From: Escherichia coli
GTDB lineage: Bacteria; Pseudomonadota; Gammaproteobacteria; Enterobacterales; Enterobacteriaceae
NCBI RefSeq assembly: GCF_003019035.1
Contig: NZ_CP027447.1
DNA: 64,000 bases
Strand: one strand, 5' to 3'
Part shown: positions 23,121-41,543 of the stretch, in pieces
Numbering within the stretch: position 1 is the first letter of the stretch
Layout of the letters: every line of letters begins with the position of its first letter
The notes under the pieces: model-generated
What the model was told of the DNA's origin: nothing
The model's database searches: none
What the model saw: the letters and a program-made list of their open reading frames with translations, nothing else
Made by a program: the position numbers and the translations under genes

Positions 23121-24260
23121 TTACCAGTTATGAATGTCGCTGGCTGTATCCGTCATGTAACGGACACCGCTAATAGTTGGCAGCAACTGATTGATCAGAC
23201 GGTTCCAGCGGGATACCGGTGCGGTGGTGACATACACCACGTCATAAGGTTGCAGGCGGAATTCTGTCGCCATCACCAGCGACGTGGCATCGGACATATC
23301 CAGCTGGTAGATATTGGCAATCTTGCCGTTACGCCCGCCCTCGCCTTTCAACGGACGAATGACAAAGATGCCGCTGGCGTTGGAGGTGGTCATGTCGATG
23401 CCTTCAGCATTACCCAGGGCTTCAGTCAGGGTCATGCCGCTAAAGTCCATTTTCAGGGTGCTCTGTTTCTTCACTTCACCCATCACAAACACTTTCAGAT
23501 CATCATTACGCGGCACGTAGAGAATATCGCCGGGGTAAAGCAGTCGGTTCTGATTGAGGTCGCCGTTTTGCATCAGCGCCTGCAAAGAAATGCGCTCTTC
23601 ACGACCATTGTGTGTTAGCACCACGTTGCGCCAGTCAGCGGTGTCGGTCAGGCCACCTGCGGCGTTGATGGCGTCGAGAATGGTCAGTGGCACGTTGGTG
23701 ATCGCCTGTTGACCGGATTTATTCACCTGACCGGAGATATAGGCTTTTTGCGAGCGGAAGGCGGCGATATTAACGTCCACCTGCGGGTCAGCGATGTACG
23801 TCGCTAAGCGCCCGGTAATATCACTGCGGATTTCAGCGAGCGTTTTCCCCACCACGTGAACTTTGCCGATATACGGGTAGAACATGGTGCCGTCAGGCTG
23901 TACCCAGTTGCCGGTGTCGCTGGAGCTGCGGTACTGACCGGCTGGCGTGGTGAGTTCCGGGTGATCCCAGACGGTGACATTAAGAACGTCTCCCGGCCCG
24001 ACGCGATACTGATAATTCGCGATCTCACTTTCCAGCGTCATATTGGGGCGCGCTACATTCGGGCGTGGGCGTAATTGGTCAATCAGGCGCGGGGTCAGCG
24101 GATAAACATTCACCATTTTGTCGAGATCGAAATCAGCGTCCTGCTGTTTGATGACGTCTTTCCCCATCGTCGACATATTGCTGCCCGGAAGTACTGTGCA
24201 ACCGCTTATCAAGGTTACTGACACCAATAATGGCATCAATTTCATTTTGGATTTCATCAT
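23121..24260 (-). CDS. wza: Outer-membrane polysaccharide export lipoprotein Wza
   Basis: 379-aa ORF with lipoprotein signal (…[10 protein letters not shown]). Confidence 0.95.
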
Positions 24261-24438
24261 TGTTTATTTATCACTTTGGCAGAGTAATTATCCTGTGCAC
24301 TATTAATAGCAATGTCGCCATGCACATTTACCTTGCAGTTAATTGAATAAAAATTTAACTGGCATCAGTCCTAAAAAAATTGATTTCATCCGCAGGCTAT
24401 TGACAGAATAATTCAGACTGGTCTTTCAGGCATCCAGA

Positions 24439-24478
24439 CACGCTACCGCCCCTGGCTTTTTAGCTACCAATACACTGA
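24439..24478 (-). promoter_or_regulatory. JUMPStart/ops element in the wza (cps operon) leader
   Basis: Plus strand cacgctaccgcc at 24439-24450 is the reverse complement of ops GGCGGTAGCGTG; flanks nearly identical to the copy at 360-399. Confidence 0.75.
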
Positions 24479-24664
24479 TTTAGCTTAATTTTTAAAACCC
24501 TCTCAACATACAGTCGTTGATGAGAAAGGGTTATTGCGGAAATTAACTTCCGAATATAAGGTGACATTATGGTAATTGAATATTGGCTCTCCAATAATGC
24601 AGGAGGAAGTGTTACAGCTAACGGAATAGCAGGCAAGGTAACAATTCGGCAATTGGCTATTTTT

Positions 24665-24678
24665 AAGAATTATATTAA
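24665..24678 (-). promoter_or_regulatory. Candidate RcsAB-box-like sequence upstream of cps operon
   Basis: taagaattatatta resembles the TaAGaatatTCctA consensus recalled from memory; location far upstream of wza is plausible but unverified. Confidence 0.25.
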
Positions 24679-24918
24679 GTGTCATTCAATATGGTTTTTA
24701 GGAGTTTCTTTAGGTTGACAATATTTAATATAGTGTCTCCACATGCGATATTTCTTAAATAATGTTTTATTATTACCACTTTTAATTCAGGGATAATGTG
24801 AGGTTATAAACCTCAAATAATATGAGATAAATAGTGCTGCAACATTGCATTTTTGCCCCGATTTATCCATGATCGAATTGTGACATTTGTCATACAACGA
24901 ATAGGTTTTGTACTTACT

Positions 24919-26502
24919 ATGGAATGGATTGCCGATCCGTCTATCTGGGCCGGGTTAATCACGCTGATTGTGATCGAACTGGTCCTCGGCATTGATAACC
25001 TGGTCTTTATTGCCATCCTCGCCGAAAAACTACCGCCGAAGCAGCGCGACCGCGCACGGGTTACCGGGCTCCTGCTGGCGATGTTAATGCGCCTGTTACT
25101 GCTGGCGTCAATCTCCTGGCTGGTCACCCTGACTCAACCGCTGTTCAGCTTCCGCTCGTTTACCTTTAGCGCCCGCGACTTAATCATGCTGTTTGGTGGT
25201 TTCTTCCTGCTGTTCAAAGCCACGATGGAGCTGAACGAACGGCTGGAGGGGAAAGACAGCAATAACCCCACGCAACGCAAAGGTGCGAAGTTCTGGGGGG
25301 TGGTGACACAAATTGTGGTACTGGACGCCATCTTCTCACTCGACTCGGTGATTACCGCCGTCGGGATGGTCGACCATTTACTGGTCATGATGGCCGCCGT
25401 CGTTATCGCTATTAGCCTGATGTTGATGGCCAGCAAGCCCTTAACGCAATTTGTTAACAGTCACCCGACGATCGTTATTCTCTGCTTAAGCTTCCTGTTG
25501 ATGATTGGCTTTAGCCTGGTGGCAGAAGGTTTCGGCTTCGTCATACCGAAAGGCTACCTGTACGCTGCTATTGGTTTCTCGGTGATGATCGAGGCGCTCA
25601 ATCAGTTGGCTATCTTTAACCGGCGACGTTTTCTTTCCGCTAACCAGACACTGCGCCAGCGGACTACCGAAGCGGTAATGCGCCTGCTTAGCGGGCAAAA
25701 AGAAGATGCGGAACTGGACGCCGAAACCGCGTCCATGCTGGTGGATCATGGTAACCAGCAGATCTTTAATCCGCAGGAACGGCGGATGATTGAGCGGGTA
25801 CTTAATCTTAACCAGCGTACCGTCAGCAGCATTATGACGTCGCGCCACGATATTGAGCATATCGATCTCAACGCGCCGGAAGAAGAAATCCGCCAGTTGC
25901 TGGAGCGAAATCAGCATACGCGGCTGGTGGTTACCGACGGTGATGACGCAGAAGATTTGCTCGGTGTTGTTCACGTTATCGACCTGCTACAACAGTCTCT
26001 GCGCGGCGAACCGCTCAACCTGCGGGTGTTGATTCGCCAGCCGCTGGTGTTCCCGGAAACCTTGCCGTTGTTACCTGCCCTGGAGCAGTTCCGTAATGCC
26101 CGCACGCACTTTGCTTTTGTAGTGGATGAGTTTGGCTCGGTGGAAGGGATTGTGACATTAAGTGACGTCACTGAAACCATTGCCGGTAACTTGCCGAACG
26201 AAGTGGAAGAGATCGACGCCCGCCATGATATTCAGAAAAATGCGGACGGTTCCTGGACGGCGAATGGTCATATGCCGCTGGAAGATCTGGTGCAATATGT
26301 GCCGCTGCCGCTGGATGAAAAACGTGAATATCACACCATTGCCGGGCTATTGATGGAATATTTGCAGCGTATTCCAAAACCTGGCGAAGAAGTTCAGGTG
26401 GGGGATTATTTGCTTAAAACGTTGCAGGTGGAAAGCCATCGCGTGCAGAAGGTGCAAATTATTCCGCTACGTAAGGATGGCGAGATGGAGTACGAGGTGT
26501 GA
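24919..26502 (+). CDS. yegH: Inner-membrane protein YegH (TerC-like N-terminal domain, CBS pair and CorC/transporter-associated C-terminus)
   Basis: Start at [13 protein letters not shown]…; 527 aa; ORF-track 22-codon upstream extension rejected. Confidence 0.9.
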
Positions 26503-26576: not shown

Positions 26577-26915
26577 ATGAGAAAAAAGCTGGCTTTTCTT
26601 GATACCAGTCTTGACGATTTACGCGCATTTCCAGAATCGTCTCGACAGGAAATTGGCTATCAACTCGACAGGTTCCAACAAGGGTTAAACCCATACGACT
26701 GGAAACCTTTTTCAACTATCGGCCCTGGTGTGCGAGAGATTCGTACTCGCGATGCTGATGGGATCTATCGCGTCATGTATATCGCAAAATTTGAAGAAGC
26801 GGTTTACGTATTGCATTGTTTTCAAAAGAAAACACAGACTACCAGTCAATCGGATGTTGATTTAGCCAAACGACGCTATAAAGAACTTGTTCAGGAGCGG
26901 AAAAATGAAAATTGA
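26577..26915 (+). CDS. Type II toxin, RelE/ParE-fold, HigB-2/Gp49-like ('addiction module killer protein' family)
   Basis: 112-aa ORF with RBS aaggatgga; sequence pattern …IRTRDADGIYRVMYIAKFEEAVYVLHCFQKKTQ… typical of Gp49/HigB-like toxins; followed by an overlapping XRE antitoxin gene. Confidence 0.7.
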   Translation: MRKKLAFLDTSLDDLRAFPESSRQEIGYQLDRFQQGLNPYDWKPFSTIGPGVREIRTRDADGIYRVMYIAKFEEAVYVLHCFQKKTQTTSQSDVDLAKRRYKELVQERKNEN

Positions 26916-27195
26916 AACCTTTGATAGTGTGTGGGATGCGGTGAGTGACACCCCTGAACAAGCGGAAAATATGCGGATCCGTGCCGAACTTGTAACGATC
27001 ATTAATAACTGGATTGAACAACAAGGGTTTAGCCAGGCCCAGGCAGCGTCTGCTTTAGGGGTCACTCAACCTCGCATATCTGAACTTGCCAGAGGTAAGA
27101 TCCAGATCTTTAGTATCGATAAATTGATCACCATGATGGCTCATGCAGGATTGCATATTCAACGTATTGAAATTCAATATCCACATGCTGCTTAG
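26905..27195 (+). CDS. Type II antitoxin, XRE-family HTH ('addiction module antidote protein')
   Basis: 96-aa ORF MKIETFDSVWDAV… with HTH LGVTQPRISELARGK; RBS aggagcgg; overlaps toxin gene by 11 nt. Confidence 0.7.
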   Translation: MKIETFDSVWDAVSDTPEQAENMRIRAELVTIINNWIEQQGFSQAQAASALGVTQPRISELARGKIQIFSIDKLITMMAHAGLHIQRIEIQYPHAA

Positions 27196-40556: not shown

Positions 40557-40736
40557 AAGAAATCCTTTCTTAGAGAATTATTGAGGTCCGGTATCATACC
40601 GATTGCAATAATGAAATAAGAGCAAACGAAGAAACTTTCAGAATTAGGCCCGGCGGCGCAGAAAATTTTGCTATTCGCCTCGCAAGAACGGAGAGCCGTC
40701 GATTGACACTAAGGGCGGAGTGACATAATTTCAGGA

Positions 40737-40886
40737 GTGAGGGTTAGGGAGAGGTTTCCCCCTCCCCCTGGTGTTCTTAGTAAGCCTGGAAGCTAATCAC
40801 TAAGAGTATCACCAGTATGATGACGTGCTTCATCATAACCCTTTCCTTATTAAAAGCCCTCTTCTCCGGGAGAGGGTTTCCCGTTT
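40737..40886 (+). ncRNA. sibA: Sib antisense sRNA (type I antitoxin), copy 1; ends approximate
   Basis: -35 ttgaca (40703-40708), 17-bp spacer, -10 taattt (40726-40731); intrinsic terminator gccctcttctccgggagagggtttcccgtttc ending ~40886; fully antisense to ibs ORF. Confidence 0.6.
40777..40836 (-). CDS. ibsA: Type I toxin IbsA-like, 19 aa (MMKHVIILVILLVISFQAY)
   Basis: Reverse-complement translation; SD aaggaaag upstream; differs from remembered K-12 IbsA by one residue (P17Q). Confidence 0.8.
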   Translation of the reverse strand: MMKHVIILVILLVISFQAY

Positions 40887-41071
40887 CAGCGTCCCGCTGA
40901 AATCGTCGGCTTACCTCCTTTCGCCCTGAATGCAGTCTATCGCTAACGCGTGAACAAAATAGTTTCCTCTGTGATTATTCCGTAACGACTCGCAAAGAAT
41001 ATTTGCTGGCAGGATCGCAGACTACAAAGCCTGCGGATTGACAATCTTATCGTGAAGGCATAATTTCAGGA

Positions 41072-41214
41072 GTGAGGGTAGAGCGGGGTTTCCCCCGCCC
41101 TGGTAGTCTTAGTAAGCGGGGAAGCTTATGACTAAGAGCACCACGATGATGAGTATCTTCATCATGACCCTTTCCTTATTTATGGCCCCTTCCTCGGGAG
41201 GGGCTTTCCCGTTT
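41072..41214 (+). ncRNA. sibB: Sib antisense sRNA, copy 2; ends approximate
   Basis: -35 ttgaca 41038-41043, -10 taattt 41061-41066; terminator hairpin ggcccctcctcgggaggggc + ttcccgtttc (41184-41214). Confidence 0.6.
41109..41165 (-). CDS. ibsB: Type I toxin IbsB-like, 18 aa (MMKILIIVVLLVISFPAY)
   Basis: Reverse-complement translation with SD; hydrophobic Ibs-family peptide. Confidence 0.8.
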   Translation of the reverse strand: MMKILIIVVLLVISFPAY

Positions 41215-41399
41215 CAGCGTCCCGCTGAAATCGTCGGCTTACCTCCTTCTGTCCTGTATGCAGTCTATCGCTGACTTGCGGATAAAATAGTTTCCAATGT
41301 GATTATTGCGTAACGTCTCGCAAAGAATATTTGCTGGCAGGATCGCAGACTGCAAAGCCTGCAGATTGACAATATTATCGTGAAGGCATACTTTCAGGA

Positions 41400-41543
41400 G
41401 TGAGGGTAGAGCGGGGTTTCCCCCGCCCTGGTAGTCTTAGTAAGCCGGGAAGCTTATGACTAAGAGCACCACGATGATGATCCACTTCATCATGACCCTT
41501 TCCTTATTTAAGGCCCCTTCCTCGGGAGGGGCTTTCCCGTTTC
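41400..41543 (+). ncRNA. Sib antisense sRNA, copy 3; ends approximate
   Basis: -35 ttgaca 41366-41371, -10 tacttt 41389-41394; terminator hairpin 41512-41543. Confidence 0.55.
41437..41493 (-). CDS. Type I toxin Ibs-family, third copy, 18 aa (MMKWIIIVVLLVISFPAY)
   Basis: Reverse-complement translation; same frame/SD as copy 2 but with Trp at position 4. Confidence 0.7.
   Translation of the reverse strand: MMKWIIIVVLLVISFPAY

Follow-up and report, generated by a model that had tools for sequence, protein, structure and literature searches.

The CRP-like sequence that precedes yegH in the 64,000-nucleotide stretch of Escherichia coli DNA analyzed in this study (hereafter, the window) is a real protein-binding site, conserved and already in the literature, which is placed here on the transcription start site (TSS) of yegH. 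We put about even weight on the view that positions 24879-24894 are a conserved operator on the yegH start, at which bound CRP or PhoB sterically down-regulates a constitutive promoter; the site is likelier to repress than to activate. The binding of CRP in vitro and of PhoB in vivo at the yegH start was already known, and the placement of the site relative to the TSS is added here, being absent from the study in which the CRP site was published (Wang et al. 2026). The stakes are small, i.e., a transporter to which no substrate has been assigned. A conserved CRP/PhoB-binding operator on the start site is a testable hint that starvation for carbon or phosphate lowers yegH expression, and it offers one concrete case for the question of why many transcription-factor sites found genome-wide lack a measurable regulatory effect.

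The divergent intergenic region between wza and yegH occupies positions 24261-24918 (658 bp), and its GC content of 34% agrees with the AT-rich surroundings described in the original prediction. The colanic-acid cps operon begins with wza (minus strand, 23121-24260), and the ATG of yegH (24919) corresponds to position 2137902 of MG1655. The wza-yegH region is present in 4,831 of 5,426 complete E. coli genomes, and strain 2012C-4502 is 100% identical to the window. YegH is an inner-membrane transporter of the TerC/CBS/CorC family. The Mg2+-stress protein MgpA of Salmonella is a paralog of YegH, and deletion of yegH in that organism was without phenotype. A PmrA site has been predicted upstream of Salmonella yegH and was stated to be unconserved in E. 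coli (PMC1525208). The elements of the yegH transcription unit are the following.

24919..26502, plus strand: yegH coding sequence (CDS), 527 aa, with a TerC domain, a CBS pair, and a CorC_HlyC domain
24845..24850, plus strand: -35 hexamer TTGCAT, from the alignment of 72 species; fits the mapped TSS
24868..24873, plus strand: -10 hexamer CATGAT, from the alignment of 72 species (mean identity 1.00); 7 nt upstream of the TSS
24880..24880, plus strand: yegH TSS (+1 = G), from two independent TSS maps
24904..24909, plus strand: Shine-Dalgarno region (A)GGT(A/T)TT of yegH, conserved (mean identity 0.90)

The yegH promoter is TTGCAT/17 bp/CATGAT, a constitutive promoter of the sigma70 type. It was identified through conservation and TSS data; the consensus promoter scan missed it because TTGCAT matches TTGACA in only three of six positions, which is below the threshold of the scan. 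The alignment (A1) comprises 72 distinct Enterobacteriaceae promoters drawn from 80 loci. Across these species, the -35 hexamer is TTGCA(T/A), with TTG invariant and CA nearly so, and the spacer between the hexamers is variable in sequence over much of its length, whereas its length is fixed at 17 bp. CATGATC at 24868-24874 is invariant and lies within a near-invariant block, TTTATCCATGATC, which spans -18 to -6. In the map of Kim et al. 2012 (supplementary file 2), the yegH TSS is at 2135887 of NC_000913.2 (14 reads, 39-nt 5' UTR), and the upstream sequence given for it ends in CATGATCGAATTG, which corresponds to position 24880 of the window. SMRT-Cappable-seq places the TSS of b2063 at 2137862 on the forward strand, i.e., at 24879 or 24880 of the window, depending on the index base. 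The only 5' end reported within the yegH CDS is that of Mendoza-Vargas 2009 at +26 from the ATG (approximately 24944); it has no predicted promoter, and we treat it as a processing product or a spurious start.

The CRP-like sequence at the TSS is as follows.

24879..24894, no strand assigned: CRP-binding core TGTGA-CATTTG-TCATA (TGTGACATTTGTCATA), from sequence, a position weight matrix (PWM), and published Footprint-seq; centered at +7.5

The original prediction had located this sequence at exactly these coordinates and counted 9 of the 10 positions of TGTGA-N6-TCACA as matched, both of which are correct. It had also put the sequence about 30 bp upstream of the yegH start codon; the distances to the ATG are 32.5 nt from the center of the site and 24 nt from its 3' end. 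Cores with at most one mismatch occur twice in the window, against an expectation of 1.74. A scan with a CRP PWM, which had been suggested as a check, was made with a matrix built from the 39 other high-affinity sites, all experimentally defined, that Table 1 of Wang et al. 2026 contains. With 12.7 bits, the site is within the training range (9.9-22.5, median 17.2) and ranks third in the window, but this score is not above chance, random 64-kb sequences containing 1.27 sites of equal or better score. The significance of the CRP-like site rests on conservation and published experiments, not on the match itself.

The published experiment on CRP is the Footprint-seq study of Wang, Stringer & Wade (2026 preprint, PMC12871828), in which tgTATGAcaaatgTCACAatt is a novel CRP site, assigned to wza/yegH in Table 1, with an inferred in vitro Kd of 7.0 nM. 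This sequence is the reverse complement of positions 24877-24897, i.e., a footprinted motif of 21 nt that is identical in the window, and the CRP-like sequence thus binds CRP in vitro. The site lies more than 500 bp from any CRP site described before, and the intergenic sites found by Footprint-seq were called 'likely regulatory' by the same authors. That study gives the in vitro affinity only, with no TSS placement. Since the TSS is at 24880 and the center of the site at 24886.5, the site is centered at +7.5 and overlaps +1, which is the geometry of a repressor or a roadblock; a site so centered cannot be a class I or class II activator site. In Footprint-seq, CRP protects approximately 19-20 bp on either side of the site center (PMC12871828), so that the footprint at yegH would extend from roughly -13 to +27, over DNA that RNA polymerase must occupy. 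An upstream, activator-style placement therefore does not hold, because the TSS is inside the left edge of the site. Relative to the two sequences that had been singled out, the TSS falls downstream of the palindrome discussed below and on the upstream border of the CRP-like site. Neither strand yielded another promoter spaced suitably for activation by CRP; a divergent promoter reading the minus strand under CRP activation was considered and rejected, as no suitably spaced -10 was seen by eye and the promoter scan gave none. The literature searched contains no report of in vivo CRP occupancy of the site and no report of a crp- or cAMP-dependent change in yegH expression.

The same DNA has been known as a PhoB target since 2012, which the original prediction had overlooked. 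Two motifs have been assigned to PhoB.

24868..24885, minus strand: Pho-box-like sequence TGTCACA-ATTC-GATCATG (TGTCACAATTCGATCATG), from the motif of Fitzgerald et al. 2023 and a Pho PWM; covers -12 to +6
24880..24897, minus strand: alternative PhoB motif TTGTATGACAAATGTCAC, from Yang et al. 2012; at -30.5 from the ATG

Common to the motif calls of 2012 and 2023, and the basis of both, is the heptamer TGTCAC(A), the complement of the left half of the CRP site. Yang et al. 2012 (PMC3465305) identified the PhoB target at yegH by ChIP-chip, EMSA, and a lux reporter; the reporter indicated activation, and the microarray gave a log2 change of -0.92 with PhoB present. Fitzgerald et al. 2023 (PMC10294691, Table 1) found a PhoB ChIP-seq peak at 2137862 (approximately position 24879 of the window) with a score of 5. 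In the same study the yegH region was H-NS-bound, RNA-seq of yegH gave no significant change (2,257 versus 2,498), and many PhoB sites were described in the title and abstract as transcriptionally inert. RegulonDB also includes yegH among the PhoB targets. The published data on PhoB-dependent expression of yegH are thus conflicting or nonsignificant. A Pho PWM built from the 58 other ChIP-seq sites of Fitzgerald et al. 2023 scores 24868-24885 at 14.8 bits (training median 15.4), which ranks first in the window, with 0.66 such sites expected by chance; the 2012 motif scores 9.5 bits. Only the first heptamer, TGTCACA, is good, and its partner GATCATG matches in four of seven positions and coincides with the -10. 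In a canonical Pho box, two good heptamers (TGTCAYA) are repeated directly with a period of 11 bp and take the place of the -35 of the activated promoter. The box at yegH has one strong heptamer; it is on the opposite strand at -12 to +6, and the activating geometry is absent.

Activation by CRP requires a site near -41.5, -61.5, etc., and activation by PhoB requires a box that replaces the -35. Because both regulators are outside these positions at yegH, a steric mechanism is the most likely one, and both geometries (CRP centered at +7.5, Pho box at -12 to +6) predict competition with RNA polymerase. cAMP-CRP binds the site tightly in vitro (Kd of about 7 nM), and its protection would cover about -13 to +27, within the territory of RNA polymerase. 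The left half of the site, TGTGACA, reads TGTCACA on the other strand and is at the same time the strong heptamer of the Pho-box-like sequence, which PhoB occupies in vivo when phosphate is limiting. In the mechanism that we favor, with neither protein at an activating position, the bound regulator would act sterically, either competing with RNA polymerase for the -10/+1 region or blocking promoter escape, and yegH expression would be modestly lowered when carbon (through cAMP-CRP), phosphate (through PhoB~P), or both are limiting. One parallel is the class of CRP-repressed promoters such as cyaA P2, where CRP likewise binds over the start site and inside the footprint of RNA polymerase, not upstream, so that its occupancy is expected to hinder initiation. 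At yegH, the right half-site is imperfect (TCATA), and repression by CRP is a prediction. The direction of the microarray change of Yang et al. 2012 fits repression; the contradictory outcomes for PhoB, the H-NS-bound state of the region, the chance-level CRP match, and the loss of the site in some genera stand against it.

The start-site element is conserved. The 39 bp that span the -10 and the CRP site are identical in 4711 of 4824 E. coli genomes (97.7%), including K-12. Across genera, the mean identity of the half-sites is 0.79 for TGTGA and 0.86 for TCATA, and the variation within them is concentrated at the outer positions, which are the least important for CRP (Wang et al., PMC12871828). 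Variation in the N6 spacer is confined to +7 to +9 (variants include CATTTG, CAATTG, CAAATG, CATTCG, CATTGG, and CATTAG); C(+5), A(+6), and G(+10) show conservation equal to that of the half-sites. The CRP PWM score reaches at least 9.9 bits in the same register in 37 of the 72 species, the genera that keep it being Escherichia, Citrobacter, Salmonella, Enterobacter, Lelliottia, Leclercia, and, in part, Kosakonia; the Pho PWM score reaches at least 6.8 bits in 52 of the 72. In Klebsiella, Raoultella, and Kluyvera, the CRP site is lost and the promoter is kept. The left half is deleted in Kluyvera, and in Klebsiella and Raoultella its position is taken by ATGGCAC (TGCCAT on the other strand). 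The right half TCATA never improves to TCACA in the 72 species, i.e., T(+14) is never the CRP-optimal C, and the three conserved spacer bases exceed what CRP needs. The fixed TCATA and the overconserved spacer bases indicate that other constraints also act on this DNA. Some lineages (L022 and L041) move toward a more perfect palindrome while the CRP score falls.

At seven loci (L058, L060, L075, L076, L078, L079, and L081) from Klebsiella, Raoultella, and isolates labeled Enterobacter, another conserved motif, ATGGCAC(T/G)CT, stands in place of the CRP/Pho palindrome, some 35 nt before the yegH ATG. The TGCCAT on its other strand sits in the register of the Pho-like heptamer, and the -35 and -10 are unchanged. 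The TGGCAC in Klebsiella and Raoultella also resembles a sigma54 element, which we take to be a weak match.

The second sequence singled out in the original prediction lies farther upstream.

24799..24815, no strand assigned: perfect 7-bp inverted repeat TGAGGTT-ATA-AACCTCA (TGAGGTTATAAACCTCA) with a 3-nt spacer

The repeat is perfect, as had been described, but it is one base to the right of the position given then (24798-24814), and it covers -81 to -65 from the yegH TSS. It is a chance, strain-specific feature with no role. Six perfect inverted repeats with 7-bp arms and a 3-nt spacer occur in the window, against 4.6 +/- 1.9 in Markov-1 random sequence, and in the intergenic region one perfect 7-bp repeat with a spacer of 0-10 nt is observed for 0.93 expected. 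Only 380 of 4769 E. coli genomes (approximately 8%) share the same 39 bp around the palindrome, and 3,397 genomes differ from the window by at least two bases there; the K-12 allele is TGAGGTTATTACCCTCA. Other Escherichia species have unrelated sequence at this position, and the same is true of 76 non-Escherichia Enterobacteriaceae loci, in which no counterpart was found. Cross-species conservation upstream of yegH starts only at about 24825, i.e., downstream of the palindrome. The suggestion that both sequences are regulator sites accordingly survives for the CRP-like sequence, which is bound by CRP in vitro and PhoB in vivo, and fails for the palindrome, a minority allele within E. coli that occurs at chance frequency and is unconserved elsewhere. 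Both the 9-of-10 CRP match and the 7-bp palindrome are at chance frequency in 64 kb, and the real site and the accidental one are told apart only by conservation and published binding data.

The main rival to steric down-regulation is binding without consequence, in which CRP and PhoB would bind to no effect, the core promoter and the initial transcribed region would be what is conserved, and the likeness to the motifs would be incidental. We regard it as somewhat unlikely. It accommodates the PhoB ChIP-seq site without significant expression change, the want of in vivo CRP evidence in the literature searched, the statistically near-chance CRP and Pho matches, and the conservation of C(+5), A(+6), and G(+10) beyond the CRP requirement. 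However, the confirmed RegulonDB sites that were assayed in PMC12871828 have Kd values in a range that includes 7 nM. The pattern of half-site, partly variable spacer, and half-site across genera is also unusual for sigma70 initial transcribed sequences, and occupation of -13 to +27 is hard to square with unperturbed initiation. The reading in which both sequences are upstream regulator sites, in line with the original prediction, and CRP is taken as a class I or class II activator of yegH is largely refuted already by the TSS maps, and we consider it extremely improbable. CRP does bind the site in vitro, and -81 to -65 is a possible position for activators, but class II activation would need a TSS at about 24928, inside the CDS, and the sole 5' end within the CDS (+26), besides having no predicted promoter, would place CRP near -58, off the helical phase of class I. 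In addition, no promoter-like site was found nearby on the opposite strand, and the palindrome is at chance level and unconserved. Two further explanations concern the symmetry of the start-site element, one at the level of RNA and the other at that of DNA. The RNA feature is as follows.

24880..24893, plus strand: predicted 5' hairpin GUGAC-AUUU-GUCAU, in the MFE and centroid structures; +1 to +14 of the yegH mRNA

Hairpins at the 5' end protect ompA mRNA from 5'-end-dependent decay, and a 5'-terminal stem-loop selected for the same protection of yegH mRNA would make protein-DNA binding secondary. The first nucleotide of the predicted hairpin is the mapped +1, both structures contain the hairpin, its arms are conserved while three of the four loop nucleotides vary, and a standard pair is found in 85% of the alignment cells. 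We nonetheless judge selection on this hairpin unlikely, given that covariation is 0.097 versus 0.115 in shuffles (485 of 500 shuffles being at least equal), both sides change in only 2 cells, and the fold of the whole UTR has a z-score of only -1.3. Kluyvera has lost the hairpin by deletion, and Klebsiella and Raoultella have other sequence in its place, with the promoter intact in all three. The hairpin also matches no Rfam family; an Rfam scan of 24200-25100 gave no match on the yegH side, only the JUMPstart element and a chance match to mir-320. At the level of DNA, the element might be the operator of a dedicated dimeric factor, e.g., one of the OmpR/PhoB family with a CusR/HprR-like box, with CRP and PhoB cross-recognizing (T)ATGACAATTGTCAT(A), a near-perfect palindrome found in most genera. 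Most species have the core TGACAATTGTCA, a perfect 12-bp palindrome. In L022, the palindrome is perfect over 16 bp (TATGACAATTGTCATA) and the CRP score is down to 8.2 bits, in L041 both outer positions are changed with symmetry kept (CATGAC...GTCATG), and the T at +14 is never the CRP-optimal C. The CusR-box site AAATGACAAAATTGTCAT of Yang 2012 (PMC3465305) has the same half-sites and is cross-bound by PhoB. On the other hand, no such factor is described in the literature searched, in which CusR or HprR binding at yegH is likewise unreported, and the conserved A(+6) has a variable symmetric partner at +9, so that the symmetry is imperfect. The CusR/HprR box AAAATGACAANNTTGTCATTTT, the consensus of Yamamoto and Ishihama, has inverted TGACAA/TTGTCA half-sites that are shared by the start-site palindrome of yegH; the halves at yegH abut and would be 2 bp closer than in that box. 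That the consensus TGTGACAATTGTCATA is primarily the operator of a dedicated regulator sensing the cation substrate of YegH, with CRP and PhoB recognizing a look-alike, is in our estimation very doubtful.

Several other features were observed around the yegH promoter. A GATC (Dam) sequence at 24871-24874 overlaps the -10. A near-invariant TTTATC lies directly upstream of the -10 (block 24862-24874), with T(-14) and C(-13) conserved, which is a sigmaS-like signature; the sigmaS-like and sigma32-like readings of the promoter are weak matches, as is the resemblance of TTATCCATG to a DnaA box (7/9). A block of GA(G/T)AAATC at about -55 to -44 (24825-24836) was seen by eye in many genera and may be an UP element or the site of another factor. 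In C. amalonaticus S646, RIT714, Buttiauxella, and Intestinirhabdus (L009, L029, L082, and L073), the conserved promoter upstream of yegH is set apart or replaced by an insert that is GC-rich and REP-like or of another kind; in Intestinirhabdus, the promoter and the start-site palindrome are moved about 70 bp farther upstream.

The other user of the intergenic region is the divergent cps/wza operon, the 5' leader of which contains the following element.

24439..24477, minus strand: JUMPstart element containing ops (GGCGGTAG), Rfam RF01707, 57.3 bits, E = 2.3e-12

A promoter-like site is present on the cps side at 24593-24566 of the minus strand, and an RcsAB-box-like sequence, TAAGAATTATATTA, lies near 24665-24678, about 100 bp upstream of it. 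Taken together with JUMPstart/ops, these indicate that the cps control region ends approximately 200 bp from the yegH TSS. The map of Kim 2012 contains no TSS for wza. In the RefSeq annotation of the closest genome, a 49-aa 'hypothetical protein' (WP_162829205.1, 24569-24718, plus strand) is placed in the cps promoter region; K-12 has no matching annotation, and the entry probably reflects an ORF called spuriously in AT-rich sequence.

Between yegH and asmA, a two-gene module at 26577-27195 is missing from K-12. Its first gene encodes a Gp49/HigB-like toxin (112 aa, annotated as RelE/ParE family) and its second an antitoxin-like protein of the HTH_37/HTH_3 type (96 aa); the module is a strain-specific insertion of a type II toxin-antitoxin system. 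Farther downstream, at 40703-41508, three Sib antitoxin RNAs (Rfam RF00113, 141-150 bits) are arranged in tandem with a period of approximately 328 bp. An identical 7-bp inverted repeat, TTCAGCGTCCCGCTGAA, follows each of them (at 40885, 41213, and 41541), and these repeats are likely the terminators of the Sib RNAs. K-12 carries two copies (sibA and sibB) at the corresponding locus, and with three Sib RNAs against two, the strain of the window appears to carry an extra Ibs/Sib unit.
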